From positions 90,218 through 129,202 of the IMG/VR virus record IMGVR_UViG_3300014202_001569: 38,985 nt of DNA; one strand, 5' to 3'. The position numbers were made by a program, and so were the translations under genes. The notes under the pieces were generated by a model, which was not told where the DNA came from, did no database searches, and worked only from the letters and a program-made list of their open reading frames with translations. This DNA is from a virus. The stretch's first letter is position 1; every line of letters begins with the position of its first letter. Positions 1,048-36,754 of this stretch are shown one piece after another.

Positions 1048-1063
1048 TGGTACAATTGCAATT
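1048..1063 (-). repeat. 16-bp junction motif, copy 1
   Basis: + strand TGGTACAATTGCAATT; overlaps the TGA stop of 1063..1356. Confidence 0.95.
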
Positions 1064-1356
1064 CAGCACATGGCATAGGATGCCTTAGAAGAAATCACGA
1101 TCTTAATGGACTTCTTATATCCAGGTTTAATATCCATGAATATAGTTTTCTTAACTACTTCTTCACCGCAGACGTAGCGAATTTCAATTTCTAGGCGAAC
1201 TGGCTCCGTGAGTGGTTGCGTCTTATAACAGGTGTTAGCTTCGATTTGTTCGCCGTTTATAAAGAGTGAATAGGGTGTACGGCTTTCAACAGCAATTTCA
1301 AATTGTGCGGGTTCGGCTGGAATGAGACTTGCGGCCAGTAGAATTAAATTGAACAT
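1063..1356 (-). CDS. secreted small beta-sandwich protein (PEGA/TIGR03000-like, tentative)
   Basis: Signal-peptide-like MFNLILLAASLIPA, LFINGE motif, AAGGAG RBS. Confidence 0.5.
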   Translation of the reverse strand: MFNLILLAASLIPAEPAQFEIAVESRTPYSLFINGEQIEANTCYKTQPLTEPVRLEIEIRYVCGEEVVKKTIFMDIKPGYKKSIKIVISSKASYAMC

Positions 1357-1395
1357 ATAGACTCCTTCTATTCAATTATAATCTATTTGTTGTAT

Positions 1396-1608
1396 TTAAT
1401 CAATCCTAATCCACGGTTGATCGTAGATGCAATTAGGCTCAAAATCAATTGGCCTTTCATACTCAGGGACAGGCTTATCACCTACTTGCCAGCCAACTTG
1501 CCGCAAATATCGCTTGCCATCCTTCGTGAAGACTTGATAAACCTCGTTATAGGTGTCTTCAATGACCGTTGCGCCGTCAGGCACCTCGTTCCAGTGATTG
1601 ATATACAT
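1396..1608 (-). CDS. hypothetical phage protein
   Basis: ATG at 1608 directly follows the stop of 1610..1831. Confidence 0.5.
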   Translation of the reverse strand: MYINHWNEVPDGATVIEDTYNEVYQVFTKDGKRYLRQVGWQVGDKPVPEYERPIDFEPNCIYDQPWIRID

Positions 1609-1609
1609 T

Positions 1610-1831
1610 TTAATCCTCAATTTCAATTTCTTCGTCCAGGTCCAGGGAACCGCCCAGGCCAGGAACGCCATGAATCCATTCGGCGGTAGCAACCGCAATG
1701 AATGCTGCTCCATAGGTTGGAGAGAGTCTAGGAAATTCTTTAACGTGGGTGAGTTCGTAAACCTTTTTTTGACCAAATTCACGCACTACTACCTTCGTCC
1801 CTATTTTTAATTCTTTTGCTTTGACAACCAC
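1610..1831 (-). CDS. hypothetical phage protein
   Basis: ORF in the packed array. Confidence 0.5.
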   Translation of the reverse strand: MVVKAKELKIGTKVVVREFGQKKVYELTHVKEFPRLSPTYGAAFIAVATAEWIHGVPGLGGSLDLDEEIEIED

Positions 1832-2175
1832 GTTTCCACATCCTTTGTGTCCAACATAGATAGCACCGCGTCGGGCTTAGCGCGGAAAATCGCCCTTAAT
1901 GTTTCCGCCGTCGATTGAGGAATGGGTTCATCCTCTTCAATAACATACATTTCGTCTAGCTTGTCGATAGGGACGCAGCACTTACTGGTCACGTCATCGA
2001 CATAAATACAGCCACGCGAACAGTTTGCGGGGAGAGTTTCATCGGGCCGTGCGATGATCCGCATATCACTCATGAAGATATTCGTTCCTCTTACGCAAAG
2101 ATACTGTTCGCCGCTGTCATTATCCAGGGCAGATTCAGGATTCTTTGCATAATCAGTCAGTCGGATATGGAGCAT
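1807..2175 (-). CDS. hypothetical phage protein
   Basis: 122-aa ORF with an AGGGG RBS-like sequence. Confidence 0.6.
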   Translation of the reverse strand: MLHIRLTDYAKNPESALDNDSGEQYLCVRGTNIFMSDMRIIARPDETLPANCSRGCIYVDDVTSKCCVPIDKLDEMYVIEEDEPIPQSTAETLRAIFRAKPDAVLSMLDTKDVETWLSKQKN

Positions 2176-2183
2176 GGTTCCCC

Positions 2184-2396
2184 TTAGTAGTCGAAGGTTA
2201 GTCCGTCGTGTTCGCTAAGACGGTGGCCATCGACCGTAATATATTCATCGGTCAGACCATTGGCATCATCGGCGTCTTCGGCATTCTCGGCGTCTTCAAT
2301 ATCGAAAACTCGCCGTTCCACGTCATCATACTTGGCCTTAGAGACGCAAGTAATCGAATCATCAAATACGCTGGTGTAGGTGACTTCACGAATCAT
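2184..2396 (-). CDS. hypothetical acidic phage protein
   Basis: GGAG RBS; 70 aa. Confidence 0.6.
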   Translation of the reverse strand: MIREVTYTSVFDDSITCVSKAKYDDVERRVFDIEDAENAEDADDANGLTDEYITVDGHRLSEHDGLTFDY

Positions 2397-2413
2397 GCTT
2401 TTGCTCCAGGTAG

Positions 2414-2562
2414 AAAAAAAGTGTTGCGGCGTGAGAGTTCTACTACTGAGTCTTCACTAGGTTTCGCTATGATTGGTTTCCCAGGTTTCCTAGCTATCAT
2501 TCAGTCCACTCTCAGCGGCGGTTTATTACTCGTTTATATTGAGTTGCCTCGCCGCAACACTT
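2414..2562 (-). ncRNA. putative structured non-coding RNA or cis-regulatory element ending in a U-tract
   Basis: 13-bp terminal inverted repeat (2419-2431/2550-2562), stacked 7-bp TGAGAGT/ACTCTCA helix, further internal helices, T7 tract; intergenic. Confidence 0.6.
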
Positions 2563-2566
2563 AGTT

Positions 2567-2582
2567 TGGTACAATTGCAATT
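2567..2582 (-). repeat. 16-bp junction motif, copy 2
   Basis: Exact copy, 1 nt after the TAA at 2584. Confidence 0.95.
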
Positions 2583-2583
2583 C

Positions 2584-3975
2584 TTAGAACGCAATCTCCA
2601 CGATAAGACGGAACAGGTAGTCCTGCAAATCGCGGCTCATATCGGTCGCACCCGTAGTATGATGTGCTACTTCCTCAAGCATAGCCTTGAGCAACGTATA
2701 GCCCATCGTGGCATGGTCAGTATGAATGTATACGATACCATTCTTATACATTCCGCCCGTTTGTGCTTCCCCGCTCATAATGGGATTGAAGCACTTGACA
2801 GGCGGCTTTTCCCGACCGTTCAGCTTACCATAGGTTTCGAGCAGATTCCAGACCATATCCAGTGCTTTGAGGGTATCTGGAGTAGCTTCGGATTCGGTAA
2901 ATCCTTCCTTTTCCAGACCATCCAGAACGTCATCTTCCGTCTGAATGCCCAATTGCTGGAGCGTTTGGAACCAATTACCTTCGATCTTAACAGGCTCAAA
3001 ACCCTTCTTTTGGACGAAATCGCTAACAGCCTTCTTGCCTGAAACAAGAACAGCATTATCACCAGCAACCGTCTTGAAAGCGGCCTTGAACTTGTCCGAA
3101 CGAGTCTTCTTAACCTCCTTGTTATCATATTCATTATGAACGTAGCTGGTTTCCAGCTTGCTTTCAAAGACCTTGCGGCCTTCAATTTGCGACTTGAGAA
3201 TCTTGGCCAAATCGCCAGCTTCTGCCGTGCTAATTGCCTTGGAGCAAGCATAACGCACGTCCCAAACTTGCGCATTACGCGATTCATCCAGGGCCAATTC
3301 ATCGCCCAAGTTATAATCGAAGACGCTTTCCTCTTCGACGCGGGAGACAAGCACGCCCTTCTTATAGATTAGGACATTCTTGCCAGTGCCCAGCTTCGGG
3401 AGAATCTTCGTGTTCAGCAAATGCGGCTGAGAGTAGTGAAGGAAAAGAGTTCCCAACTGCGTCCAACATTCCTGAATTTCAGGAGTCAGCGGCAGAAAGA
3501 CAGCGGTATGTCCTTCCTTGGCACGAACCTTATCCACCACTTCAAATTCCACGTCCTTATAGCTACCACCAGCGATAGTAGCACCGTCGATGGCATTGGC
3601 GACAAATTCGCGGAACGCCATTGCGATCTTAGTCCAATCTTGGACACCCCATTCCAGGGTAAAACCCAAATCTTCGGTAGCCGACTTCAACGTACCGTCG
3701 AAATCCTTGCCACCATACTTGACGCAAACCTGATTGAATTGCTGACCGCTCACCATACGCGGCTTAGAGAAAAAGAACATCTTGAGGGTGCCAGGACAAA
3801 TGGCAACGTCATGATTCTTACGCAAAAGCAAAGCCAGACCATTCTTGCTGCCGCTACCATACTGGCCGATAGTACCAGTCGCACCAGCGGAGCGAGTAGT
3901 AGAAACGCCCAGCAAGGTAAATGCACACGGGTCAGCAACGCCAGGATTGCGAATCATCAGGTACTGGTACTGCAT
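2584..3975 (-). CDS. GHKL-type ATPase with permuted motif order and a C-terminal zincin-like domain
   Basis: IRNPG, LLGVSTTR, IGQYGSGSK, REFVANAIDG and GHT motifs; C-terminal LEEVAH. True start probably ATG 3975 (GGAG RBS), not 4155. Confidence 0.65.
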   Translation of the reverse strand: MQYQYLMIRNPGVADPCAFTLLGVSTTRSAGATGTIGQYGSGSKNGLALLLRKNHDVAICPGTLKMFFFSKPRMVSGQQFNQVCVKYGGKDFDGTLKSATEDLGFTLEWGVQDWTKIAMAFREFVANAIDGATIAGGSYKDVEFEVVDKVRAKEGHTAVFLPLTPEIQECWTQLGTLFLHYSQPHLLNTKILPKLGTGKNVLIYKKGVLVSRVEEESVFDYNLGDELALDESRNAQVWDVRYACSKAISTAEAGDLAKILKSQIEGRKVFESKLETSYVHNEYDNKEVKKTRSDKFKAAFKTVAGDNAVLVSGKKAVSDFVQKKGFEPVKIEGNWFQTLQQLGIQTEDDVLDGLEKEGFTESEATPDTLKALDMVWNLLETYGKLNGREKPPVKCFNPIMSGEAQTGGMYKNGIVYIHTDHATMGYTLLKAMLEEVAHHTTGATDMSRDLQDYLFRLIVEIAF

Positions 3976-4016
3976 TGTTCTATTCTCCATTAGGGAAGTG
4001 ATGCGTCTGCCTAGAT

Positions 4017-4032
4017 TGGTACAATTGCAATT
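4017..4032 (-). repeat. 16-bp junction motif, copy 3
   Basis: Exact copy; supplies the TAA stop of the gene ending at 4031. Confidence 0.95.
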
Positions 4033-4435
4033 AGACTTCTTCTTCCTCGTACTCTTCTTCCCGCTCATACCGTGGTTCGCAATCCAACATATCGTGATAG
4101 TTCTTACGATATTCGGTGCGAGACTCGATATGCGTAATGATCTTCTCCAGCGCACTCACCAGATGCTTTTCGTAATCTTCGTTTTCGGTGCAGTTGCTGT
4201 TGTTTAAGTCTTCCCGCACGTCGGGAATGCCAAACTCACGCAAGAAAGACTCAGCGGGACCAGCGGTTTCGATGCCGTAGCCATCAAACCAATAGTCACC
4301 ATCGTTGTAATAACGATAGATGATACGATTGATAGCACGCAGCGTTTCACCTTCCAGCGTTTCGCACTTGCCGCTTGACGGAACTAGCTTGCTGAACAGC
4401 ACTTCATTCCGCTTTTCCAACACGTCGGGAACCAT
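4031..4435 (-). CDS. hypothetical phage protein
   Basis: AGGAG RBS with ATG at 4435; contains LVPSSGKCETLEGETLRAINRIIYRYYNDGD. Confidence 0.65.
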   Translation of the reverse strand: MVPDVLEKRNEVLFSKLVPSSGKCETLEGETLRAINRIIYRYYNDGDYWFDGYGIETAGPAESFLREFGIPDVREDLNNSNCTENEDYEKHLVSALEKIITHIESRTEYRKNYHDMLDCEPRYEREEEYEEEEV

Positions 4436-4464
4436 GATAATCTCCTGTTTGTGGGCAACAGGAC

Positions 4465-4480
4465 TGGTACAATTGCAATT
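4465..4480 (-). repeat. 16-bp junction motif, copy 4
   Basis: Exact copy; supplies the TAA stop of 4479..4865. Confidence 0.95.
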
Positions 4481-4865
4481 AGTAAACGCCGTGCCCAATG
4501 GAAACGTGAAGCGGGATTTCTGGTAGTCTAACTAAACCTAGCTCCTCTCTTATATCCAGAGCTAGATTACACTCAACGGGGAACCAGTAGTAATCCCCAT
4601 TAGTACCTACGCATGGGATAATCTCAAATTTCACTTCCTGACCGTTGTACTTTTCCCAGGCTGTCTTATTGGGCGGTTCTTCATCGCGGACAACGGTGAT
4701 GTGGGATTCCCATGCTGGCCGCTGTAATTTATAACAGCGATTGGTCATCAAATAGAATAGGTGGCGGTAATACTTCCCCAATGCGGGGTCACAGTCAATT
4801 ACCAGCCACCATTTAGACGAACTAGCCCCAAGTAATTTGGGGCTATATCTGAGCGTGCCAATCAT
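4479..4865 (-). CDS. 2H phosphoesterase superfamily protein
   Basis: Two Hx[T/S] motifs, SHITVV and LHVSIG, about 65 aa apart. Confidence 0.7.
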   Translation of the reverse strand: MIGTLRYSPKLLGASSSKWWLVIDCDPALGKYYRHLFYLMTNRCYKLQRPAWESHITVVRDEEPPNKTAWEKYNGQEVKFEIIPCVGTNGDYYWFPVECNLALDIREELGLVRLPEIPLHVSIGHGVY

Positions 4866-4866
4866 G

Positions 4867-5414: not shown

Positions 5415-5416
5415 AG

Positions 5417-5680: not shown

Positions 5681-5684
5681 GCTC

Positions 5685-5849
5685 TCACTGGTACAATTGC
5701 AATTGTTTGTCGATCTTCTTGGCCAAGATAGTTTCACACCTTTGGCAGCGATTCTCCATACGGACAGGGAAGCCGCCGAACAGCAATTGGCGTCTGGACG
5801 GTTGTAGTGTCACAGTTTTCTTTTCTTTGCCGCAGATGTTACATTTCAT
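5685..5849 (-). CDS. small CxxC...CxxC zinc-binding protein (54 aa, not in ORF track)
   Basis: MKCNICGK...RCQRCE...KQLQLYQ*; the last codons read through motif copy 5. Confidence 0.5.
   Translation of the reverse strand: MKCNICGKEKKTVTLQPSRRQLLFGGFPVRMENRCQRCETILAKKIDKQLQLYQ
5689..5704 (-). repeat. 16-bp junction motif, copy 5
   Basis: Exact copy. Confidence 0.95.
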
Positions 5850-5861: not shown

Positions 5862-5890
5862 TTGCGTGATAATGGTACATTTGTTACATT
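5862..5890 (+). promoter_or_regulatory. sigma70-like promoter for the methylase
   Basis: TTGCGT-17 nt-TACATT, with TG just upstream of the -10. Confidence 0.4.
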
Positions 5891-5915
5891 GGAGACTGGT
5901 AATGGAACAATACAG

Positions 5916-6629
5916 ATGCAATATTTTGGTGGCAAACAGCGAATCGCTAAGTTTATTATAGCCTATCTGAACCGTATCAGAAAGCCAGGGCAAGTGTTCT
6001 TAGAGCCATTCGTCGGCTCAGCCAACATCATCATTGGCATGGATAATCCCCGCATAGGCTCAGACTTCCACGAAGATTTGATTATGCTGCATAAAGCTAT
6101 TCAGAGTGGGGAATTTGTATACCCGTCTGAGATTAGCGAGCAGCAATATCACGATCTTAAAAAAGCTGGACCTAGTGCCTTGCGTGCATTGGTCGGGTTC
6201 GGTTGTTCTTATTCTGGCAAATGGTTTGGTGGATATGCAAGGGCGGGCCAGCGTAATTATTGTCTTAATGCGGTTCATAGCCTACAAAAGAAAGCTAAGT
6301 TCTTTGATGGAATAGAGTTCCATTATAAAGATTACCGCGATTGGGAGCCTGTTGATTGTTTGATTTATTGCGACCCGCCTTATAGGAATCACACTAAGAT
6401 TCATAATAACAGTTTTGATTCTGATGAATTTTGGGATATTATGCGTAAGTGGTCTAAGCATAACACCGTGGTTACATCGGAATATGAAGCACCAAACGAC
6501 TTCACTTGTGCGCTGGAATTTGCTACTAAGACGGACATAAGAGGCAAAGAAGGCAAATTCCAGCGCACGGAGAAGTTGTTTATCGAAGCGGCGTTGTATC
6601 AAAGCCTAGCTTTGTCAGACGCATCTTGA
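5916..6629 (+). CDS. dam: D12-class N6-adenine DNA methyltransferase (Dam-like)
   Basis: YFGGK, FLEPFVGSA (SAM-binding motif I) and IYCDPPY (motif IV); ATG at 5916. Confidence 0.9.
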   Translation: MQYFGGKQRIAKFIIAYLNRIRKPGQVFLEPFVGSANIIIGMDNPRIGSDFHEDLIMLHKAIQSGEFVYPSEISEQQYHDLKKAGPSALRALVGFGCSYSGKWFGGYARAGQRNYCLNAVHSLQKKAKFFDGIEFHYKDYRDWEPVDCLIYCDPPYRNHTKIHNNSFDSDEFWDIMRKWSKHNTVVTSEYEAPNDFTCALEFATKTDIRGKEGKFQRTEKLFIEAALYQSLALSDAS

Positions 6630-7503
6630 TAGCGGCGTCAAAGCGTTCGGGCTTGCCACCGCTGGCGTTGGCCTTGTTGCGACAGAGCAACGTCTTAGCA
6701 CGTTTCCAGCCCCGCATCTTATCGGGGTTGGCCAGTGCTTGCGGATACTCACCGATGAGAGTATCCAGGTCATGCGAAGGCAGAGCCTTCTTCTTAGCAA
6801 ATCCAACTGCGCGGCCAGTGTTGTGATTGACCATTGGTTTCGGCCTTTCAGAAACTCGGTTAATAGGACAATTTGATTCCAATGTAAACAATAACATTGG
6901 ATTACTGTTGTCCCGATACTGGAAATAAGGCTTCTCTTCGACGGGAACAAAATGGACTGAATCTCCAAACAACTCAGTGAAGATACAGATATAGGTTGCT
7001 AGGCGATAGTCTCCATTGCAATAATACATATACGAAGTTCGCAAACTCTGTTGCGACTCATCAAACTCTTCACAGCGTTCATCAAGGAAAGGAACGCTTG
7101 GCCTCCAGGCATAATTGAAACAGAAACTAATCCTGAATGGATGCACCAAATGGGGAATCAATTCTGATTTAACCCACTCGTATAATTTCTCATCCATCGA
7201 GCCAATACAATCCAAATATGCGAAGTCTACTTTGGAGTGTAGTTTCAGCGTATGCAACTCGCCTATATGGAATTTGTAATCATTAAGGTGATGCAATTGC
7301 GGCTTAATGATACGGGCGGTACTGGCGTTATTTTCAACCAGATATAAGTTCTGGTATGGATGAATTACGCCTTTATCCAGGGCTAGATTCACACAGCGGC
7401 ATTTTGCTCCAGGCAAAAAGATAGCTGAATGCTGGGAACAAAATGAACCCATTGCAATATCGCGGGCTATTTGTTTCTTTTCACCATCCCATTCACTAAG
7501 CAT
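6580..7503 (-). CDS. SAM-dependent methyltransferase-like protein with basic C-terminal extension
   Basis: Rossmann-like AIFLPG, LYLVEN and VDFAYLDCIG segments; coupled to the upstream helicase. Confidence 0.45.
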   Translation of the reverse strand: MLSEWDGEKKQIARDIAMGSFCSQHSAIFLPGAKCRCVNLALDKGVIHPYQNLYLVENNASTARIIKPQLHHLNDYKFHIGELHTLKLHSKVDFAYLDCIGSMDEKLYEWVKSELIPHLVHPFRISFCFNYAWRPSVPFLDERCEEFDESQQSLRTSYMYYCNGDYRLATYICIFTELFGDSVHFVPVEEKPYFQYRDNSNPMLLFTLESNCPINRVSERPKPMVNHNTGRAVGFAKKKALPSHDLDTLIGEYPQALANPDKMRGWKRAKTLLCRNKANASGGKPERFDAAIKMRLTKLGFDTTPLR

Positions 7504-9604
7504 TCTTCACCTTCTTCTCGAAATGCCCACCGAAGATACTTTCAGTCTGCGCTTCGGGATTGGAGCCAGTGCTGATTACCAGTGGTTCGGCAAGAGCAAG
7601 GTCAATATGCAGGATTTTACCAGTTTGAATATCGAAACTGATATGCGGCTCAATACCACGTCGCTTGCCTTCACTCTGCTTCACCGAATTGGTAGCCTTA
7701 TCGGTACGAGCGCTACGCAAACCGTTAGTGGTCTTGCGGAAGGCGATAAACACTTCGTTCTTAACTCCAGGCTTACGCGGCTGGACGTTATTGTACTTAT
7801 AGGAAACCGCATCCTTACCCTTGGCAATTTCAGACAAGTAATAGCTCGGAACCTCATCCAAGCGAAGCAAGCGGCACCCGTACTGGCTTTCCAGACATTG
7901 CATAACGATCTTGGAGAACAGGAGGTCGAATGGCACCCATACGCCACGCGGACGACTCTTTCGCTTAGCCCTAATCTCAGCCGCCTGCTTAGCAACAGTC
8001 TTACCCAAAACCAGGGAAGCATTCCTGAACAGAATAGCGGCCTTTGGATCACTAGCAACGAAGGAAATGAATTTACGCTCATAAGCCTTATTGCGAAGCG
8101 CCCGTGAGTGTGGCTTGAGTTTGTATTCCTTGCCCAGCGTGCGGACATAGGTATCCAAAAGCTTCTTATTATGGGCGCTCAATACCACGGTGCGAGGTTC
8201 ACCATAGATGGCGGCACGGCCAGCCAGCCCTTGAATCATGGCGGCGGCGGTCGAATACCTCCAGGTGAAATCCATAAAGATTTGGACTTCCTTGGGGAAA
8301 CGATTCGACATACGGCCCTTAGCCGTCACCACGATCAGAAACATAATCTTGTTCTGAGCGCAATGACTGATTTGCTCCCGCAATTCCTTATAGCTCATTT
8401 GCTGAGTATACTTGATTACGCAGAGCTTACCGCCAAACTCTTCCTTAACCTTTGCTACGATCTTATCCGTGCATTCATCATTGTTGATAAAGCGTGCGCA
8501 AAATCCAGACTTGCCAAGGGTGACATAATGACGGAAGATACGATTGATACGCTTCATCAGGAGCGTGAAATAGGTATTACAATCCTTCACGCCGAAGTCA
8601 GCCCAATCAATACCATAGGTATCGCCAATCTTCTCCAGGGCTTTATGAGAGAAAGCAGCCTTGGGATAGAGTGGAATTAGGTCTGAACCTTGCAAATCAT
8701 CGAAAGAATAGATATGCGGCGTGACAATCGCCACGTCCACGTCTACATGATGACCGTTAATCATATTGAATCCAGTGTACTTCAAACCCAGCTTCAAATA
8801 GATGGGTTCGACATACTTGGACCAATGATAAGTAAACGGCGTAGCAGAAACAAAGATAATCTGGTGGTTCTGATTCGCAAACTTCTGGCGAACTTCAACG
8901 CCAAAGATAGCGTCGGCAATCGACAGTTTGTTCTCTTGGACGTGCGCTTCGTCCCAAATAGTAATGAGAGTCTTGCCTTGCTTCGTGAGCGAGTTCATAC
9001 GCTCAATAATTTCACGCTTCAAGGAAGCCTTGTTGGTCATGCTCCAGATATGCGGCTTGAAGCCACCGTTCTTACCAGAGCCTTTATCACTATCACCATT
9101 CTGGATGACATGCCCATAATTCCTAATTTCATTGCTGGAATTTTTCATATCAACCCGCTGGAGCCACTTCACGAACTTATGATAAGTGTCAGCGGTCATT
9201 TCCTCAATAGTCGTGTCGCCAGGACAGACATAGAGAAATTCGCAGTCTTGCTTATGAAGGTCATGCCACATGCGCTTAAGCCAGAGAAACAGGATGCAAG
9301 AGCCATTCTTGCCACCCTGAACAGCATTAACGGCACTATACAAACCATTGGCTGGCTTAAATAGCGTGTTAATGCCCGTCGTCTTGACAAGCATCAAGAC
9401 AGCGGATTCAATTTCGTTATCATGAATTTCAGGTGGACCGCCAGCGGTCATATAGATGCTTACTTCGTCAGTAGTAAGCTCAGAAGGCGGCATAGTGAGA
9501 AGCGGAACATTGTATTTCTTCAAATACTTGTTCACTCGTTCAGTAAAACTAACAAACCACTTCTCAAAGATTGGCTTTAGTTCATCGTACATAGAATTGT
9601 CCAA
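7496..9604 (-). CDS. superfamily 2 helicase-like ATPase (Z1/restriction-associated type)
   Basis: AVQGGKN (Walker A variant), WDEAH, VSATP, QGLAGR..IYG (motif VI). Confidence 0.7.
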   Translation of the reverse strand: MDNSMYDELKPIFEKWFVSFTERVNKYLKKYNVPLLTMPPSELTTDEVSIYMTAGGPPEIHDNEIESAVLMLVKTTGINTLFKPANGLYSAVNAVQGGKNGSCILFLWLKRMWHDLHKQDCEFLYVCPGDTTIEEMTADTYHKFVKWLQRVDMKNSSNEIRNYGHVIQNGDSDKGSGKNGGFKPHIWSMTNKASLKREIIERMNSLTKQGKTLITIWDEAHVQENKLSIADAIFGVEVRQKFANQNHQIIFVSATPFTYHWSKYVEPIYLKLGLKYTGFNMINGHHVDVDVAIVTPHIYSFDDLQGSDLIPLYPKAAFSHKALEKIGDTYGIDWADFGVKDCNTYFTLLMKRINRIFRHYVTLGKSGFCARFINNDECTDKIVAKVKEEFGGKLCVIKYTQQMSYKELREQISHCAQNKIMFLIVVTAKGRMSNRFPKEVQIFMDFTWRYSTAAAMIQGLAGRAAIYGEPRTVVLSAHNKKLLDTYVRTLGKEYKLKPHSRALRNKAYERKFISFVASDPKAAILFRNASLVLGKTVAKQAAEIRAKRKSRPRGVWVPFDLLFSKIVMQCLESQYGCRLLRLDEVPSYYLSEIAKGKDAVSYKYNNVQPRKPGVKNEVFIAFRKTTNGLRSARTDKATNSVKQSEGKRRGIEPHISFDIQTGKILHIDLALAEPLVISTGSNPEAQTESIFGGHFEKKVKNA

Positions 9605-9714: not shown

Positions 9715-9730
9715 TGGTACAATTGCAATT
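9715..9730 (-). repeat. 16-bp junction motif, copy 6
   Basis: Exact copy; supplies the TAA stop of 9729..9872. Confidence 0.95.
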
Positions 9731-10135: not shown

Positions 10136-10166
10136 GATTTATTTAGTGTTTTAGGTACATATCATT

Positions 10167-10778
10167 ATGGGTGCAACAAGTATAACAGGTGTCGGTCCAG
10201 GCGACTCGCATAAAAGAATAGCATATCTCTCAAGGGATTTGCCTAAACTTGAAGTAACTGAGACAACTAGCAATCCACAAGACCTTATTACAACAGAAGT
10301 TTCTGGTGGCGGTGATTTTGGTACTCAGTGGGAGCTTATGTATTCTCGCGCGGTTCCAGTTAGTGACCCCAATGATGGTTCGCCAGTGCCGAGTGGCGTT
10401 CTTTTTGATCCTTTATATGAGTGGGCATTTGGAATACATGCTATAGTTTATCCTATGGTTTTTGCCCTAGTCCCTATTACCACACCACTTCTTTTGTCAG
10501 TAATGAACCTCAATACTACTCTGGATTATGTTGGTATGCAATGGTCGCCTGACAACGGTACTACGGTATTCAATTTTTTGTCCGAACTTAATGAAATAGC
10601 TTTCTTAGCTGTTGGAGCATTATTGCCGCAGTCCACCGTCGTTCTAAATGAGGCGGGGAGTGGTCCTAACAGAATAACTGTAGATGGCACAACTGGAGAG
10701 TTTTACACTGATTATCAAGATGCGGTAACTGCTGATATTTATTTCGTTATTGCTCGCCGTAGAATTGTTGCTCTTTAA
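10167..10778 (+). CDS. putative late or virion-associated protein
   Basis: One of few plus-strand genes; TACATA 5 nt before the ATG; Gly/Thr/Val-rich. Confidence 0.55.
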   Translation: MGATSITGVGPGDSHKRIAYLSRDLPKLEVTETTSNPQDLITTEVSGGGDFGTQWELMYSRAVPVSDPNDGSPVPSGVLFDPLYEWAFGIHAIVYPMVFALVPITTPLLLSVMNLNTTLDYVGMQWSPDNGTTVFNFLSELNEIAFLAVGALLPQSTVVLNEAGSGPNRITVDGTTGEFYTDYQDAVTADIYFVIARRRIVAL

Positions 10779-10780
10779 CA

Positions 10781-11269
10781 TTATTCTGACCTCATGGTTC
10801 CGTATTCTGACCTCATGGTTCCGTCCGCAAGACAAACATGAATACCACCAGGAGTTCGCAATGACCACATGCTTTCGTCTGGCTTCCAATCATCAAACCT
10901 TTTGCATATCAATTTGCCGCCCAAATCAAAGCTAAACGTGGTTGTTGCGTCTCCATCTATATCAATGGACTCTAATTTCTTGCCTTCGAGTCGATGGAGC
11001 GCAGCCTTAATCGAATTAAAACTACCTTCATAGGGTGAATCAATCGTAGCTGCTATATCATCATCTTCCATAATTATCCACGAAGTCAACCATAATTGAA
11101 GGCCGCATTCACCCTTAATACGCACCCATCGAGTACGATGGCCTTTATGTACTCTTTCTTTATGGGCAACCAGGGATGGATTACCAAACTCAATGTTGGT
11201 GCCAGCTTGGTTGTCCCACCACGTTCCCCAAGCATAAAGACCAATAGCAGGTTTGAAGATTTCTAGCAT
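10781..11269 (-). CDS. hypothetical phage protein
   Basis: 162-aa ORF; C-terminus duplicated by a 21-bp tandem repeat. Confidence 0.6.
   Translation of the reverse strand: MLEIFKPAIGLYAWGTWWDNQAGTNIEFGNPSLVAHKERVHKGHRTRWVRIKGECGLQLWLTSWIIMEDDDIAATIDSPYEGSFNSIKAALHRLEGKKLESIDIDGDATTTFSFDLGGKLICKRFDDWKPDESMWSLRTPGGIHVCLADGTMRSEYGTMRSE
10782..10823. repeat. 21-bp perfect tandem duplication
   Basis: TATTCTGACCTCATGGTTCCG twice. Confidence 0.95.
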
Positions 11270-11793
11270 GAGTAGATTTTTTCCAAGTATTCCTTAGCCT
11301 TCTCATATCCCCAAGCATGAATATAATTTACTTCTTCATACTTGCCGCTCTTGGTTACATCTTCATTGGGGAATAGTTCTTCGGCCTTCTTCTTCTGATT
11401 GGTGCGGGTCCAGTCGATCAGAAGAACACGCTTGCGCCAACCGATCTTAATATGACCAATTGGCGTAGTGACAATGAACCACGGCAAGCGGGAGCAACAT
11501 GGATCATTACAATAGCCGTTGGGGATTTCTTCAACAAAGATATTCTTGCCATCGAATAGAGCAAGAATCTCTGCTTTTTCCTTGACGGCACGTTCGCCCA
11601 TGTTCTCATCAATGGCAACATTCTGTTTCCAAATTGCCTTAAACATCTGTTCACCTAGATTCCAAGCCACTCGTTGTTCTGCTTCGGTAGGCTTAGGACG
11701 GCCAGTAGCTATGAGAATACGCACGCCCATCGGCCTTCCATTATCGAAGGTTTCGTGGGAGTGCGCTAGAACGTAATCAGTGTCTTTAAGCAT
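11263..11793 (-). CDS. hypothetical phage protein
   Basis: 176 aa; contains EEIPNGYC...PWFIVTTPIGHIKIGWRKRV. Confidence 0.65.
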   Translation of the reverse strand: MLKDTDYVLAHSHETFDNGRPMGVRILIATGRPKPTEAEQRVAWNLGEQMFKAIWKQNVAIDENMGERAVKEKAEILALFDGKNIFVEEIPNGYCNDPCCSRLPWFIVTTPIGHIKIGWRKRVLLIDWTRTNQKKKAEELFPNEDVTKSGKYEEVNYIHAWGYEKAKEYLEKIYSC

Positions 11794-13278: not shown

Positions 13279-13555
13279 CTTCGTCGTCCTCCTCTTCCCA
13301 CTCATCCTTGAAGTCTTCATCGAAATCGGGAAGATTGAACTTCTTAACCTCGGAAATGACTTCGGCCTTGATAAGCTGGTCTTCAATGATGCTGAGCGCA
13401 CCCTGTACCTGATTGTCGAAATCGACATAACTCAGAACCTGTTCCTCAACTTCATCAGCGTCGATTATATCGTAAATGTCGCCGCTGAACTTAACGCCAT
13501 GCGCATCAAGGACTTGCTTCACGTCGTCTTCGGTCACTTCCCATGCCATGCTCAT
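13271..13555 (-). CDS. hypothetical acidic phage protein
   Basis: GGAG RBS inside a 19-bp block identical to the one before 3975. Confidence 0.6.
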   Translation of the reverse strand: MSMAWEVTEDDVKQVLDAHGVKFSGDIYDIIDADEVEEQVLSYVDFDNQVQGALSIIEDQLIKAEVISEVKKFNLPDFDEDFKDEWEEEDDEDE

Positions 13556-13583
13556 TGTTCTATTCTCCATTGTGTACCCTGAT

Positions 13584-13599
13584 TGGTACAATTGCAATT
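13584..13599 (-). repeat. 16-bp junction motif, copy 7
   Basis: Exact copy; supplies the TAA stop of 13598..13822. Confidence 0.95.
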
Positions 13600-14398: not shown

Positions 14399-14414
14399 TG
14401 GTACAATTGCAATT
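14399..14414 (-). repeat. 16-bp junction motif, copy 8
   Basis: Exact copy; supplies the TAA stop of 14413..14772. Confidence 0.95.
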
Positions 14415-16977: not shown

Positions 16978-16993
16978 TGGTACAATTGCAATT
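16978..16993 (-). repeat. 16-bp junction motif, copy 9
   Basis: Exact copy; supplies the TAA stop at 16992. Confidence 0.95.
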
Positions 16994-19045: not shown

Positions 19046-19382
19046 GTTTGGTACAATTGGAATTACAGACTAGGTGTTCCAACAGCAATGCCAACGCATC
19101 AGGGGCGGCATTTGCAATGTCTGGCCGATCCTTGGCAAACAGGTCCATAAACATTTTATAGAAAACCAGAAGGCTTGTAACGATGCCTTCCCCCATCAAT
19201 TCACGGAGAATAGCTACCCGCTGGTTGTTGTCGATGCTCATGTACTCGGAGCAATAGGGGTCGAAAATGTCCCTAAACGCAACCATTGAGCTACGCTTGA
19301 CGGGATGATTAACGTCATAATTGAGACACTTCATCCGAATGGTGTTCAGCATTTCTTGATGAAATTCACTCATATCAGGCAT
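19038..19382 (-). CDS. hypothetical phage protein
   Basis: AGGAG RBS; C-terminus (NSNCTKHE) reads through motif copy 10. Confidence 0.6.
   Translation of the reverse strand: MPDMSEFHQEMLNTIRMKCLNYDVNHPVKRSSMVAFRDIFDPYCSEYMSIDNNQRVAILRELMGEGIVTSLLVFYKMFMDLFAKDRPDIANAAPDALALLLEHLVCNSNCTKHE
19049..19064 (-). repeat. 16-bp junction motif, copy 10 (C>G variant)
   Basis: + strand TGGTACAATTGGAATT. Confidence 0.9.
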
Positions 19383-20974: not shown

Positions 20975-21493
20975 TTAGTCGATTTCATCGTAAAATTCAC
21001 CAACGTTGATAGCCTTATGTTCGTATGACCCGTCCTTAAAGGATGCCATTTCAATCTTGCCATCCTTGATTACGTCTACGAACACCCAACAATTTCGTGG
21101 GCAAAAGCAACGGACATATAAGTATCCGTCTTTCTCCATCGCCCAAACAGGGATATTAAACCTGTCATAGTCAGGGCGATTATCGGTTTCAAAAAGTCGC
21201 AAGTAAGGATAGACCTTCTCAAAGTCCATTCTACCCGACCGATTGAACCCTTTTTCCAAGCCAAGACAAATGCGGCCCACCCCGCCCATAAAGGTAGATG
21301 GACGCCAGTTTTCGCAGGCAAACCAAGTATGGTTGATACCACTCTTCGCAGTATCTTGAGTGACGTTCAGCTTATACTGAGGACACTCTTGAGGGTCCGT
21401 GCCGTGGATGCAGCCTGGACATTGGAAGTTGTCAACCATTTCTAGCTGAATCTTGTTACCTTGAATGGTACAATTGGAATTAGCGTCCATCAC
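20975..21493 (-). CDS. Cys-containing hypothetical phage protein
   Basis: 172-aa ORF with CPGC; start uncertain (N-terminus may include motif copy 11). Confidence 0.6.
   Translation of the reverse strand: MMDANSNCTIQGNKIQLEMVDNFQCPGCIHGTDPQECPQYKLNVTQDTAKSGINHTWFACENWRPSTFMGGVGRICLGLEKGFNRSGRMDFEKVYPYLRLFETDNRPDYDRFNIPVWAMEKDGYLYVRCFCPRNCWVFVDVIKDGKIEMASFKDGSYEHKAINVGEFYDEID
21466..21481 (-). repeat. 16-bp junction motif, copy 11 (C>G variant)
   Basis: 8 nt after the TGA at 21490. Confidence 0.9.
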
Positions 21494-22453: not shown

Positions 22454-22652
22454 TAGTACCTCCTACCCTGTTTGGTACAATTGCAATTGGCCACTCAAAC
22501 CCCATCGCCCGAAGCTCAACACGCGCTTCAGGACAATCGTTAATAAATTCGGTCAGTGCCTTGATAGTGGCAATAGGCGGGTCATAACCATGAGTTAAAA
22601 CCAGCCTATTGCCAAGGTCCATCAAAACCTTTTTCAGATTCGTTTCAGGCAT
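22446..22652 (-). CDS. hypothetical phage protein
   Basis: C-terminus reads through motif copy 12. Confidence 0.55.
   Translation of the reverse strand: MPETNLKKVLMDLGNRLVLTHGYDPPIATIKALTEFINDCPEARVELRAMGFEWPIAIVPNRVGGTNG
22473..22488 (-). repeat. 16-bp junction motif, copy 12
   Basis: Exact copy. Confidence 0.95.
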
Positions 22653-24041: not shown

Positions 24042-24057
24042 TGGTACAATTGCAATT
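24042..24057 (-). repeat. 16-bp junction motif, copy 13
   Basis: Exact copy; supplies the TAA stop of the 24056..24271 frame. Confidence 0.95.
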
Positions 24058-25839: not shown

Positions 25840-25855
25840 TGGTACAATTGCAATT
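25840..25855 (-). repeat. 16-bp junction motif, copy 14
   Basis: Exact copy; supplies the TAA stop of 25854..26009. Confidence 0.95.
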
Positions 25856-26370: not shown

Positions 26371-26386
26371 TGGTACAATTGCAATT
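26371..26386 (-). repeat. 16-bp junction motif, copy 15
   Basis: Exact copy; supplies the TAA stop of 26385..26684. Confidence 0.95.
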
Positions 26387-31900: not shown

Positions 31901-32122
31901 TCAAGTTTTGTTTTCGGACTCTCTAGGGGTACTGGTACAATTGGAATTGCCTTTTTTGATTTGGTCTAAACTACGGAAATCGCCCGCTCGGAGCGCCACC
32001 ACCATTTTGCTACAGAATGGACACTCAATGTCTTCTGGCCTAAACCACGTTTTGGGAATCAGGGATGCCCATTCATGCCCGTCTTCGCACCTACAAAAGA
32101 AAGTTGGAAATTGCATAATCAC
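31901..32122 (-). CDS. zinc-ribbon protein
   Basis: CEDGH...CPFC; C-terminus reads through motif copy 16. Confidence 0.5.
   Translation of the reverse strand: MIMQFPTFFCRCEDGHEWASLIPKTWFRPEDIECPFCSKMVVALRAGDFRSLDQIKKGNSNCTSTPRESENKT
31933..31948 (-). repeat. 16-bp junction motif, copy 16 (C>G variant)
   Basis: + strand TGGTACAATTGGAATT. Confidence 0.9.
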
Positions 32123-32649: not shown

Positions 32650-32655
32650 GATTTA

Positions 32656-33111: not shown

Positions 33112-33160
33112 AAAGTTATTTAGCCTTTATGGAATTAATTTAACTCACCTTTCTGTAACC

Positions 33161-33457
33161 TTATTCCCCCTTCACCTCTGGTATTAACTGGAGTGAATCC
33201 GACTTGCGGCCCCACCCGCAATCAGCAATCTTCTTCAAATCGTCCAGGTTAAAGATACCCTTATCCAAGAGTAACTCAACCATACGCCCCATTGCTTCCA
33301 ATACCTTCCCAGGTTGATCTTCAAGACGAATCTTATCCTTACTTAGAGAATTATACCTCTCCTCATAAAGAAGTTCATCATAAAGAAAACGAGCAATACT
33401 CTGTGTTTCTATATCGACATTGCCCTTATAGCTTACAGATTCATATTGTATTTCCAC
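33161..33457 (-). CDS. hypothetical phage protein
   Basis: GAGGTG RBS with a GTG start. Confidence 0.6.
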   Translation of the reverse strand: MEIQYESVSYKGNVDIETQSIARFLYDELLYEERYNSLSKDKIRLEDQPGKVLEAMGRMVELLLDKGIFNLDDLKKIADCGWGRKSDSLQLIPEVKGE

Positions 33458-33477
33458 GATTCACCTCTTTGTATTAG

Positions 33478-33616
33478 TGGCGACGGAAGGATTTGAACCC
33501 CCGACCTACCGTTTAAGTAACGGTTGCTCTGACGACTTTTCCCCATTTGTACTTCATGGAGAAGGCCGTACAGGTACAATTTGCAACTTGTAGCCTGTCC
33601 TCTGAGCTACGCCGCC
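33478..33616 (-). tRNA. atypical tRNA-Lys(CUU)-like gene with a 66-nt D-loop insertion
   Basis: Acceptor GGCGGCG/CGTCGCC-A, D stem GCTC/GAGC, anticodon stem ACCGT/ACGGT with loop TACTTAA, T arm GGGGG-TTCAAAT-CCTTC. Confidence 0.8.
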
Positions 33617-33831
33617 GTTTTGCAAGCATCAATTAGATTCTGAACTTTGTTATGCCTTTCAGCTTCCTGATAGACACTGAAAGCTACACCAGAAGGATCG
33701 CCCTGCCAACAAATGCCACTTAACTCTAGGCCAGCCTTGTGTGCAACCACGCCGATGCGGTCAACCCATTGAGAGACTGGCCCTTCCCTAGTTGAATCAA
33801 TCACCAGCCTAACCACTTCGGCAATGTTCAT
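33607..33831 (-). CDS. hypothetical phage protein
   Basis: Its TAG stop lies within the 5' end of the tRNA-like gene. Confidence 0.55.
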   Translation of the reverse strand: MNIAEVVRLVIDSTREGPVSQWVDRIGVVAHKAGLELSGICWQGDPSGVAFSVYQEAERHNKVQNLIDACKTAA

Positions 33832-33832
33832 A

Positions 33833-34009
33833 TCAACCCTTCATAATTTTAAGACGGAATTTAGCCTTATCCAACTTGGCTTTTTCCTTCTGATACTCTT
33901 CGGCGGAAACATTCGTCTTGTAATTCTTGGAGTCAAGCCGCTTACGCAGAAAGGCAATGTATTCCTCAGTCTGCTTGATTTCCTGTGCCTTCGTTAGTTT
34001 TTTCTTCAT
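33833..34009 (-). CDS. small basic helical protein (58 aa, not in ORF track)
   Basis: MKKKLTKAQEIKQTEEYIAFLRKRLDSKNYK... Confidence 0.55.
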   Translation of the reverse strand: MKKKLTKAQEIKQTEEYIAFLRKRLDSKNYKTNVSAEEYQKEKAKLDKAKFRLKIMKG

Positions 34010-34253
34010 CTTCTATCCATTGCTGACGGGATTTCAATGCTAATTGCGCCCAATTATATTGCTCCGTCTCCTCAAATGGGATGCCATTAAGCATATCGCA
34101 AAGCACTTCGGTATCATAAACTTGCAAAAGACTATCTATGTCGTCTGCTAGTATAATGACCTTTTTCCCTTGCTTAAAAAGCTGGCGAGCTTCGGCAAGC
34201 TTAACCTTAAAGGTTTTAGGGTCAGAAACTCGAATGATAGTAGGTATTTCCAT
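33966..34253 (-). CDS. hypothetical phage protein
   Basis: ATG at 34253 (MEIPT) directly after the twin tRNA 3' end; the ORF-track extension to 34322 runs through the RNA. Confidence 0.5.
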   Translation of the reverse strand: MEIPTIIRVSDPKTFKVKLAEARQLFKQGKKVIILADDIDSLLQVYDTEVLCDMLNGIPFEETEQYNWAQLALKSRQQWIEDEEKTNEGTGNQAD

Positions 34254-34255
34254 AG

Positions 34256-34410
34256 TAGCTAAGGAGGGACTTGAACCCACACGTTCATTTAAGAACAGGT
34301 TTCGCGTATGCCATTTCGCCACCTACCCATATAGTGGGCAGGGTGGGACTTGAACCCACACGCTCTTGTTCAGAGAGCAAACCCCGCGTATACCATTTCG
34401 CCACTTAGCT
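34256..34410 (-). ncRNA. twin (back-to-back) tRNA-Leu-like RNA lacking anticodons
   Basis: Two units, each with D arm, variable arm and T arm; cross-complementary acceptor strands; GGGTTT/AAACCT helix between units. Confidence 0.8.
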
Positions 34411-34437
34411 AAAAATTGGGAGCGGGCCACTCCCTAA
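34411..34437 (-). terminator. hairpin plus T-tract directly upstream of the twin tRNA
   Basis: GGGAG-TGGCCCG-CTCCC followed by AATTTTT, after the stop of 34442..34762. Confidence 0.45.
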
Positions 34438-34441
34438 GTAT

Positions 34442-34762
34442 TTACACGACCTTGACTTCCTTCGTCTCAAAGTAAGTCTCGCACCGCTTCACGAATGCCT
34501 TAACCTGTTCCTTGATGGACGGTGGCACCGTGGACTTCTTTGACTTCTTATTCTCAAGCCGATCATTGATACGGCCCTCGGCAATCTCCAGACCCCGCGT
34601 GCGGTTAAACTTATCAGGAGTCTTGCCAGTCAGCTTGCACTTACTCCAGCCGACCAACACCTTCTTTTCCTTGCCCTTCTTCACCCGCTTAGCGAGCAAC
34701 ACGCCCGCCTTGAGCCGCTGGCCCTTGCGCTTCTTACGGACATACTCCATCAACTGCTTCAT
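34442..34762 (-). CDS. basic phage protein (G-x-S-x-C...D-x-F...G-x-x-IA-x-x-R motif)
   Basis: VLVGWSKCKL...DKFNRTRGLEIAEGR; AGGAGG RBS. Confidence 0.6.
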   Translation of the reverse strand: MKQLMEYVRKKRKGQRLKAGVLLAKRVKKGKEKKVLVGWSKCKLTGKTPDKFNRTRGLEIAEGRINDRLENKKSKKSTVPPSIKEQVKAFVKRCETYFETKEVKVV

Positions 34763-34784
34763 AAAGCCTCCTAATAGTTAAAAG

Positions 34785-35660
34785 TTAAACAGATTGCTTT
34801 TCCTTGGCACGCTTCTCAGCCGCTTCCTTGGCACGTTCAATAACTGGACCTTTACCTTCCATCCACTGTTCCAATTCCTCGACCGTATACCAGCCGTAAT
34901 AATTCTTTTTTTGTTCCCTCGGATTCAACCAGTAATGTACTGGATGCGCACTCTTGCTTTTATCTTGCAGCCAAGCTGGACTCAGAGCATAATAGCCGCA
35001 TGGCATATCCCACGCCGCGCGGAAATCACCCTTATGCTTTTCATTATATGCGTCATTAAGGGCATCAATCTTAGCTTTGATGCCAGTATTGTCCGATGCC
35101 ACCTTTAACTTAGCACTATCAACGTGCGCTTCGTGCATTTGATCCTTCAAACGCTGGGGAATAGCACTGATAATGCCGATCACTAACCCAGCATTCTGAA
35201 AGACGTGGCCACCGCCCAACCAAACAGCCGCATCTTTGTCCTGAATAGCCTTGTAAATACGCTTGAGCCGCTTGATATTGACTGGCTTCTTAACCCGAAT
35301 GCCGAAACTGCCACCATCCCACGCCGTAGCAAGCTCAGCATCCCCATACATGGAGAGTTCACCACTGCTAATCTTGTCCAGCTTCTGACCAGCAAGATAC
35401 TTCATATCGCACTGATATTTGAGGCAAATCAGCGCCGCATTGTTCTTGTTCTCTTCAATAATGACGATTTGATCCATATTGGGGTTGTTGACACGATAGC
35501 GGTCAATGCCCAGCACCTTTTCGTCATTTTCTACGCCAAGCGTGCGATAAAGGTCTTTAATACCCCATTCATGCTCGGCAGTAAAGTCTGCGCCAAGGTT
35601 AATGGCAATCATCTGTTTGTTGTCGTCTTCCATCCAAGCACTATCATGCCCACGTCGCAT
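34785..35660 (-). CDS. hypothetical phage protein (291 aa)
   Basis: AGGAGG RBS after motif copy 17. Confidence 0.7.
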   Translation of the reverse strand: MRRGHDSAWMEDDNKQMIAINLGADFTAEHEWGIKDLYRTLGVENDEKVLGIDRYRVNNPNMDQIVIIEENKNNAALICLKYQCDMKYLAGQKLDKISSGELSMYGDAELATAWDGGSFGIRVKKPVNIKRLKRIYKAIQDKDAAVWLGGGHVFQNAGLVIGIISAIPQRLKDQMHEAHVDSAKLKVASDNTGIKAKIDALNDAYNEKHKGDFRAAWDMPCGYYALSPAWLQDKSKSAHPVHYWLNPREQKKNYYGWYTVEELEQWMEGKGPVIERAKEAAEKRAKEKQSV

Positions 35661-35683
35661 ATTTTTAGTCCTCCTACAACAAT

Positions 35684-35699
35684 TGGTACAATTGCAATT
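35684..35699 (-). repeat. 16-bp junction motif, copy 17
   Basis: Exact copy, 8 nt after the TAA at 35708. Confidence 0.95.
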
Positions 35700-35707
35700 G
35701 TCTATTC

Positions 35708-36031
35708 TTAGCCAAACTTAATAGGCATTCCAAGTGTTTTTTGTATATTGTCAAGCATAACCTGCCCAATCGGGTCTTCGGAGAAAGATCGCTCCAAGCC
35801 ATTAGCTTGCAGTGTATCATTCCAGGGCTTGAAGAATAATCCATGAACAGCCGCTTCCGCCCAAACAGGATACCGACCATTAAGCAAATCTTCAATAGTC
35901 AATTTCATTTCAATCAACCATTGGTTTTGCCCTGGCGTCAGCAATGAAACCTTAATCAGCGCAACCTGTTGTGGTTCCTCACCTAGCCCAAGCTGAACAT
36001 CTTTCCAGCAAGCGATATAGCTATGATTCAT
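35708..36031 (-). CDS. hypothetical phage protein
   Basis: Packed array. Confidence 0.55.
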   Translation of the reverse strand: MNHSYIACWKDVQLGLGEEPQQVALIKVSLLTPGQNQWLIEMKLTIEDLLNGRYPVWAEAAVHGLFFKPWNDTLQANGLERSFSEDPIGQVMLDNIQKTLGMPIKFG

Positions 36032-36032
36032 C

Positions 36033-36692
36033 CTACAGCCCCGCCAAAGTGACTTTATCCGCAGGCTTAAACTTGATTTTGTCGATTTCTGACAACTTAT
36101 TCAAGATTTCAAGAACAGCTTTATGGGAGCCGTGAATACCCTGTTGCCCACCATTAGCCGTTATCTGGCTCTTTTCATCGGTGAAGATCATGGTAATATC
36201 GGTATTGTCACGCTCCGCAGTAATAAGGACGCGGCCCGCACAACCCCACATCATTACCTTAATCTTACCGACTTTGGCTTCGTGACCCCGCAAATTGGTA
36301 TCATTCCAATACTTCTTCAAGTATGGGAGCCAATGTTTGTTCTCAAAATCACGAATGGCATCTTGAATCTTATTGTTGCCAGCCGCAATCTCCATCAAAT
36401 CCTTCTTGTATTTGGTGTAGAAATGCCGACAATCAGCACGCAGACGGTCCATAGAACCGCCCTGAGTATAATGATGGGCCATTGACGCTTCCATCGACAA
36501 ATGACTGGATACATCACCAGTTTTACGATAATGCTGGATTTCATCATCCACTTCGCAATCATCGCATTGAAGATGCTTAATCTTACCGCTATTATCATCT
36601 TCATAGATAATAGTGAAAAGATCACTTGCGTTAATCTTTGCCTTACACTCCCCGCACGTTGCGTCTTTCGGCAACTCAAAAGCCTTACCCAT
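36033..36692 (-). CDS. hypothetical protein with N-terminal CxxC...HxxC zinc finger
   Basis: GGAGG RBS, ATG at 36692; CGEC...HLQC. Confidence 0.6.
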   Translation of the reverse strand: MGKAFELPKDATCGECKAKINASDLFTIIYEDDNSGKIKHLQCDDCEVDDEIQHYRKTGDVSSHLSMEASMAHHYTQGGSMDRLRADCRHFYTKYKKDLMEIAAGNNKIQDAIRDFENKHWLPYLKKYWNDTNLRGHEAKVGKIKVMMWGCAGRVLITAERDNTDITMIFTDEKSQITANGGQQGIHGSHKAVLEILNKLSEIDKIKFKPADKVTLAGL

Positions 36693-36704
36693 ATTACCTC
36701 CATA

Positions 36705-36743
36705 TACCAGTTGAGCGAGCATGATCTGCTCGCTCAACTGGTA
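36705..36743. repeat. perfect 17-bp inverted repeat overlapping motif copy 18
   Basis: TACCAGTTGAGCGAGCA-TGATC-TGCTCGCTCAACTGGTA. Confidence 0.9.
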
Positions 36744-36754
36744 CAATTGCAATT
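36739..36754 (-). repeat. 16-bp junction motif, copy 18
   Basis: Exact copy; supplies the TAA stop of 36753..37217. Confidence 0.95.

Follow-up and report, generated by a model that had tools for sequence, protein, structure and literature searches.

The DNA analysed here is a stretch of 38,985 nucleotides (nt), below called the window, which forms the final 39 kb of the 129,202-bp virus record IMGVR_UViG_3300014202_001569 (positions 90,218 to 129,202; CheckV completeness 60%). At its gene junctions the window carries 18 copies of a 16-bp sequence. We conclude that an uncultured huge phage of the myovirus type probably uses these copies as promoters of one phage-specific class. An earlier note on the window had offered three options for the 16-mer: a crossover site of an integron-like system, a phage promoter (or an operator or RNA-processing site), and an antisense host promoter. 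The second option, in its promoter form, is favoured by the placement of the copies, by a signature downstream of them, and by their conserved position and spacing in related phages. These features, like the copy number and the orientation, are direct observations. The site is not a new gene-capture system. An identical (100%) copy of the helicase-like protein of the window is recorded on a 623-kb contig, and the complete genome thus probably measures about 0.6 Mb.

A pattern search of the window returned exactly the 18 co-oriented plus-strand copies that the note had listed (Table 1). In plus-strand spelling, 15 of them read TGGTACAATTGCAATT, and the three at 19049, 21466 and 31933 read TGGTACAATTGGAATT (the CC variant). 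When up to three mismatches were allowed, no further match appeared on either strand of the window. The expectation from shuffled sequences was 0 exact matches and 0.68 matches with up to three mismatches. Judging by the long open frames and a negative GC skew, the window genes are on the minus strand. Thus, on the coding strand, the site has the working form AATT(G/C)CAATTGTACCA and stands upstream of the starts of genes.

The genome-wide mapping that the note had proposed gave 84 copies with at most two mismatches in the 129-kb record. All 84 share one orientation, which matches that of the genes, and all fall between 55.1 and 127 kb of the record, within a 72-kb block made up of non-structural genes on the minus strand. 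No copy of the motif occurs in the tail and baseplate module (tape measure, baseplate wedge, P2-I-like protein), which is likewise on the minus strand. Therefore, the motif marks a class of genes and not a strand. Among the matches listed for viral contigs, the exact 16-mer gave single chance matches only and no multi-copy contig, and no relatives of the helicase-like protein were found among these contigs. A metagenome scan with a 447-amino-acid (aa) protein returned one 2-kb contig, with no motif nearby.

The sequence around the 84 copies has a defined structure. The 16 positions of the motif are nearly invariant, and the preceding base is T in 54 copies. The flanks had been described as unrelated, which largely holds, but a weak conserved box lies 4–9 nt downstream of the motif. 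The first five bases 3' of the motif are almost free of C. A purine occupies position 6 after the motif in 77 of 84 copies and position 9 in 78; position 7 is mostly G (70 copies), and position 8 has a pyrimidine in 76. The pyrimidine/purine step at positions 8/9 is found in 74 of 84 copies, compared with 2–30 in the adjacent registers. Such a step at -1/+1 is known to mark initiation by multisubunit RNA polymerases. The start codons follow the same register: of ATGs with an open frame of 40 codons or more, 11 copies have one at position 9 and two have one at position 10, and none of the 84 copies has one at positions 6–8 or 11. A second mode of ATG occurs at positions 30–39, after GGAG leaders. 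Elsewhere in the record, copies of the motif also stand ahead of tRNA-Tyr/tRNA-Glu and of a tmRNA-like gene; the signal is therefore independent of translation. The tmRNA-like gene is an Rfam match on the minus strand at positions 72926-73064 of the genome (L004:15926-16064), with 48.1 bits at a gathering score of 47; it lies downstream of one motif copy and ends directly before the next.

The placement, the orientation, the fixed spacing and the presence before tRNAs would also be explained if the 16-mer acted after transcription, as the site of a sequence-specific phage endoribonuclease that cuts polycistronic RNA at a fixed distance downstream. Such cuts would free mRNAs that begin at or near the AUG, as well as tRNA precursors, and the site could co-vary with the nuclease in relatives. 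However, we found no common secondary structure at the copies (z between -1.4 and +1.4 in 17 of 18). In addition, copy 5689 stands right after a gene of the opposite strand, so a fresh transcription start is needed there, and the step at positions 8/9 is typical of polymerase initiation. We therefore regard an RNA-level signal as unlikely.

The relation of the motif to the stop codons that end the upstream genes had been described correctly. In 11 window copies the upstream stop overlaps the motif edge. One of these stops is TGA, and the 10 others are TAA, made of one flanking T and the first two A of the coding-strand motif. In three copies (2567, 21466 and 35684) the stop is 1–8 nt ahead of the motif, and in four (5689, 19049, 22473 and 31933) the open frame reads through it. 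In the whole record, the (T)AA of the motif ends a frame of 45 codons or more in 27 of 84 copies, the 10 in the window among them. Since the element begins with (T)AA, one of the three incoming frames terminates there. In a dense array of copies outside the window, the same T is kept without serving as a stop. Thus, the use of the motif as a stop codon is a by-product of compaction and not the function of the site. The distance to the next plausible start is also variable, as noted before, with a spacer of 3 to 170 nt.

We compared the window with three relatives, whose helicase-like proteins are 71% (L109), 60% (L108) and 43% (LR756511.1, a complete 595-kb genome) identical to that of the window. 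Each of them has its own enriched and co-oriented variant of the motif: ATCTCCAATTGTACCC in L109, AATCGCAG(T/C)TGTACCA in L108 and CAGCTGTAC in LR756511.1. The core common to these variants is CA(R)(Y)TGTAC. Copies stand at orthologous junctions, namely before the helicase-like gene, before the 87-aa gene that follows the methyltransferase gene, and before the 463-aa gene and its neighbour. The relatives also repeat the spacing rule, with the ATG at positions 8–10 after the motif. In LR756511.1 a 9-mer of the motif occurs 44 times, versus 0 for the reversed control pattern, and the strand of the motif flips at about 19.5 kb, exactly where the strand of the genes flips. In the T7 group of phages, stable site positions with genome-specific spelling result from the co-evolution of promoter and factor.

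The variants of the relatives bear on the third option, according to which the plus-strand sequence TGGTACAAT is an extended -10 host promoter that sends antisense RNA into the 3' ends of the upstream genes. TG-n-TACAAT is indeed a near-consensus extended -10 element, the 16-mer would span -15 to +1 of such a promoter, and the list of sigma70-like matches includes the copy at 1048. But the relatives read GGGTACAAT, TACAAC or TACAGC at this place, so that the TG or the essential last T is lost while the core is kept. The box downstream of the motif, the fixed distance to the ATG and the tRNAs are all directional signals of the opposite strand and point down the coding strand. We give this option almost no credence.

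The same comparison weakens the idea that the 16-mer is an operator, or a loading site for an activator, a repressor or an antiterminator loader, beside promoters and is not a promoter itself. The main form of the motif, with its perfect 10-bp palindrome AATTGCAATT and its CAATTG, would suit a dimeric binder, but neither the GG and CG variants nor the relatives keep the palindromes. Two copies are followed by separate sigma70-like promoters, which had been pointed out in the note; we found real matches at 9667-9640 and 26359-26332, and they are the best coding-strand ones near copies. Most copies, however, leave no room or show no match for another promoter before the start codon, and across the window sigma70-like matches stay at background level (35 versus 35.1 in one half, 44 versus 34.3 in the other). 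An operator is thus a distinctly improbable explanation.

Identical direct repeats at gene junctions could also be the crossover points of an integron-like or PeSL-like system that shuffles gene modules. Compared with L109, a 73-aa gene insertion abuts one motif copy, and a break of homology with L108 coincides with copy 13584 (one case). The insertion of the 73-aa gene is one of three indels relative to L109, a small number from a relative that is not a close strain. The other two, a 2.1-kb insertion of five genes with one motif and a 0.8-kb insertion with no motif, are not bounded by copies, nor is there one site per gene. Alignment of the relatives, which the note had suggested as a check of the cassette model, gave an orthologous counterpart at the same junction for all four window copies in the stretch aligned with L109. 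The note had seen no recombinase in the window, and this extends to the whole record: neither the record nor the 595-kb relative contains a tyrosine recombinase (PF00589, with a control positive in all 14 genomes) or a serine recombinase above the cut-off. No attC-like hairpin or stem-loop partner is shared by the copies, and terminator-like sites are at background level. The crossover option is therefore not supported, and we consider it highly improbable that shuffling is what the sites are for. Occasional homologous exchange between copies is possible but is not their primary role.

Returning to the phage-specific promoter, we infer transcription initiation, the exact +1 and the nature of the factor from the sequence as follows. 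An RNA polymerase with a phage-encoded specificity factor would bind (T)AATT(G/C)CAATTGTACCA at about -25 to -9 and would start at the purine 9 nt past the element. The polymerase would most likely be the host multisubunit enzyme, and the factor would probably be a divergent sigma-like protein encoded outside this 129-kb record. Where the start codon lies at that purine, the product would be a leaderless mRNA, and for several copies the mRNA would begin at the start codon or beside it; the other copies would be followed by a tRNA, a small RNA or a short leader with a Shine-Dalgarno sequence. Tightly packed upstream genes would borrow the (T)AA of the element as their stop codon. The strategy is familiar among phages, and the sequence is new and unusually rigid.

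Several points weigh against this mechanism. The gene of the cognate factor or polymerase was not found in the 129-kb record, and the element fits no known promoter class (sigma70 -35/-10 geometry, sigma54 spacing). Copies 19049 and 24042 have their only plausible start codon 3–4 nt past the motif, that is, before the predicted +1. Besides, the +1 could equally be position 6, given the purine found there in 77 of 84 copies. A bolder claim is that this is a new single-box promoter, with -25 to -9 as one rigid block, without a -35 or a canonical -10 box, read by a novel type of factor, neither of sigma70 two-domain geometry nor a T7-like polymerase, and serving more than 100 small genes, tRNAs and a mini-tmRNA of a ~0.6-Mb phage clade, partly by leaderless transcripts. 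It is possible, but we hold it to be doubtful. If the sites are promoters, the motif defines the promoters of a clade of uncultured huge phages precisely and helps to set gene starts, transcription units and temporal classes, which is useful in genomes made up almost wholly of orphan genes. At orthologous sites, the variants across the clade form a natural co-variation series for finding the reading factor. Leaderless starts, if true, would be further evidence of a frequent bypass of Shine-Dalgarno initiation in huge phages.

We searched for genes that could encode the reading factor. A T7-like single-subunit RNA polymerase (PF00940) gave no match in the incomplete 129-kb record, with controls that are uninformative for this family, and only an 11-bit sub-threshold match in the complete LR756511.1. 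The search for a phage sigma factor, which had also been recommended, gave a divided answer: the 129-kb record contains no sigma70 region 2, and LR756511.1 encodes three sigma70-region-2 proteins. One of these, a 165-aa two-domain sigma-like protein, has a host-type promoter upstream of its gene, and another, of 333 aa, has the motif about 50 nt upstream. To judge from these upstream sequences, the arrangement would fit a regulatory cascade. Two proteins of the structural module (1496 aa and 803 aa), which were considered as possible virion polymerases, gave no match in PDB sequence searches. The 702-aa helicase-like protein of the window (7496-9604, minus strand) has the Walker A, DExH, SAT and QxxGR motifs of a generic SF2 ATPase. 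AlphaFold modelled it with a pLDDT of 69, and Foldseek matched the model to many SF2 enzymes with TM scores of about 0.33–0.38. It was rejected as a candidate factor, since the top matches, to the SF2 chain of the vaccinia polymerase complex, lie in the same TM range of 0.33–0.38 and are no better than those to other SF2 enzymes.

Among known systems, the T7-group promoters (T7, T3, SP6, K11), which are read by single-subunit phage RNA polymerases, resemble the motif in many respects. They are contiguous, near-invariant elements of ~17–25 bp that abut the start, are repeated many times in one orientation, often lie inside the end of the upstream gene and have their own variant in each related phage. 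Here too, 16 near-invariant positions are followed by a weaker box up to the step at positions 8/9. The differences are that no PF00940 gene was found in the record or in the 595-kb relative, that 84 copies occur in 72 kb as against 17 in T7, and that the pyrimidine/purine start signature suggests a multisubunit enzyme. The host sigma70 type does not fit: with +1 at position 9, the bases from -12 to -7 are ACCAnn, nothing is conserved at -35, and the copies themselves give no sigma70 match on the coding strand. The sigma54 type (TGGCAC-N5-TTGC) does not fit either, as the plus-strand boxes TGGTAC...TTGCA are 3 nt too close and face away from the genes, and the coding strand lacks the GG. We also rejected a reading of the extracytoplasmic function (ECF) type, with the 5' half of the motif as -35 and a downstream TAGG as -10, because the spacing is only 11–13 nt and +1 would fall past the position-9 ATGs. 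An integron attC-like hairpin was not seen either; the copies share no fold, and the site is identical in sequence while its flanks are unrelated.

Leaderless middle and late transcripts were reportedly described by Sevostyanova et al. (2007) for the Thermus phage phiYS40. The likeness is a promoter class whose distance from the gene makes transcripts start at the start codon. In our case, only about one sixth of the copies would be leaderless, and the wording of the promoter and the presumed factor differ. The start-associated sequences of Cluster K mycobacteriophages, described by Pope et al. in 2011, are said to lie 3–8 bp from the starts of protein genes and to include the ribosome-binding site. 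They share with our motif the repetition, within one phage genome, of a short invariant sequence directly upstream of many start codons. Here, in contrast, the spacing is 3–170 nt, the Shine-Dalgarno sequence is separate, and tRNA and tmRNA-like genes are also preceded by the motif, which sets it apart from that class.

The nearest wording is that of the phiEco32 middle and late promoters, which are read by the phage sigma factor gp36 with gp79; their single conserved box near -10, AATGTA, is centred at -11.5, and gp36 is a small phage sigma that acts on the host core enzyme (PMC12276001). The core ATTGTA of our motif is similar to AATGTA. However, our element is 16–17 bp long and, with +1 at position 9, lies some 3 nt farther upstream; the register would match only with +1 at position 6. 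Moreover, the record has no gp36-like gene, and sigma-like genes were seen only in LR756511.1. The PeSL elements of T4-type phages combine a sigma70-like early promoter with a stem-loop terminator (PMC2839356, PMC4122927). Like them, our motif forms repeated joints, each with a probable promoter, between small orphan genes of a large myovirus and could provide homology for recombination. Unlike them, it has no -35/-10 match, and at most two of 18 copies have a neighbouring hairpin (a terminator-like one upstream of 24042 and a strong one downstream of 36739). The overlap of the upstream stop with the motif in 11 of 18 copies leaves no room for an adjoining stem-loop there. Finally, PeSL elements have indels and replacements that end inside them, and form mini-circles; of the few indels of the window relative to L109, three in all, two have no motif at either end and one abuts a copy.

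The arrangement of the individual window copies is given in Table 1. In two copies, 9715 and 26371, a strong host-type sigma70-like promoter lies between the motif and the gene, which recalls T4 genes with both early and middle promoters.

Table 1. Motif copies in the window and features beside them (positions as in the window; positions after the motif are counted on the coding strand; promoter role and classes are predicted)
Feature	Position	Strand	Class	Downstream arrangement and remarks	Orthologues
Promoter copy	1048..1063	-	Leaderless	8-nt spacer, then ATG of 89-aa gene (770-1039); upstream TGA overlaps motif edge
Promoter copy	2567..2582	-		Short hairpin 2543-2558 follows; next long frame 170 nt downstream (ATG 2396); a leader or small RNA may lie downstream
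Promoter copy	4017..4032	-	Shine-Dalgarno leader	GGAGA leader before ATG 3975 (463-aa gene)	L109, LR756511.1
Promoter copy	4465..4480	-	Shine-Dalgarno leader	29-nt spacer, AGGAG before ATG 4435	L109
Promoter copy	5689..5704	-	Leaderless	ATG 5680 after 8-nt spacer; minus-strand genes resume directly after the opposite-strand D12 methyltransferase gene	L108 (spacer 8), L109 (spacer 9)
Promoter copy	9715..9730	-	Long leader with host-type promoter	110-122 nt ahead of SF2 helicase-like gene	L108, L109
Sigma70-like site	9667-9640	-		11/12 matches; between copy 9715 and helicase-like gene
Promoter copy	13584..13599	-	Shine-Dalgarno leader	GGAGA leader before ATG 13555
Promoter copy	14399..14414	-	Leaderless (near-leaderless)	ATG 14389 after 9-nt spacer
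Promoter copy	16978..16993	-	Leaderless	ATG 16969 after 8-nt spacer
Promoter copy, CC variant	19049..19064	-		Upstream frame reads through; exception: only plausible start ATG 19045, 3 nt past motif
Promoter copy, CC variant	21466..21481	-		26-nt spacer to ATG 21439, no clear Shine-Dalgarno
Promoter copy	22473..22488	-		AGGAGG starts exactly at position 9, then ATG 22453
Promoter copy	24042..24057	-		Exception: ATG 24037 after 4-nt spacer
Terminator-like hairpin	24104-24075	-		Directly upstream of copy 24042
Promoter copy	25840..25855	-	Leaderless	ATG 25831 after 8-nt spacer
Promoter copy	26371..26386	-	Long leader with host-type promoter	TG-extended sigma70-like site follows
Sigma70-like site, TG-extended	26359-26332	-		TATAAT -10 hexamer ends 5 nt before ATG 26326; would too yield a near-leaderless mRNA
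Promoter copy, CC variant	31933..31948	-	Shine-Dalgarno leader	AGGGG leader before ATG 31887
Promoter copy	35684..35699	-		AGGAGG from position 9, then ATG 35660 (291-aa gene)
Promoter copy	36739..36754	-	Shine-Dalgarno leader	Hairpin at once, then GGAGG and ATG 36692
Hairpin	36708-36738	-		13 bp perfect, from first base past copy 36739; -28.7 kcal/mol, z = -5.5
D12 methyltransferase gene	5862-6629	+		Position and orientation kept	L108, L109

The hairpin after copy 36739 may be a 5' stabiliser or a regulatory structure. Copies 4017 and 13584 share the leader ATGGAGAATAGAACAATG (3975-3995 and 13555-13575, minus strand), and a near-identical leader follows the L109 orthologue of copy 4017 (about 10505-10525 of L109). 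The sequence GGTRC at positions 6–10 after the motif is the reverse complement of GTACC in the motif, which gives an interrupted dyad GTACC-N6-GGTAC. This dyad is present at 13584 and partly at other copies; it was set aside because it is not kept in the relatives.

The D12-class gene encodes an N6-adenine DNA methyltransferase and is the only clearly conserved plus-strand gene in the window. At about 10145-11282, the window has a segment of which 0.8–1.1 kb is missing from L109; it contains a 203-aa plus-strand frame that matches nothing in Pfam, and the segment may be a mobile insertion. GGTACC is absent from both strands of the 129,202-bp record, where about 16 are expected under a first-order model, and TGTACA is depleted (6 versus 26 expected). 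This scarcity suggests that some restriction sites are avoided. On its coding strand, the structural module has frequent TAAATA, with 30 of 51 minus-strand matches within the first 45 kb of the record, and this sequence may represent a T4-late-like promoter class for the genes without the 16-mer.

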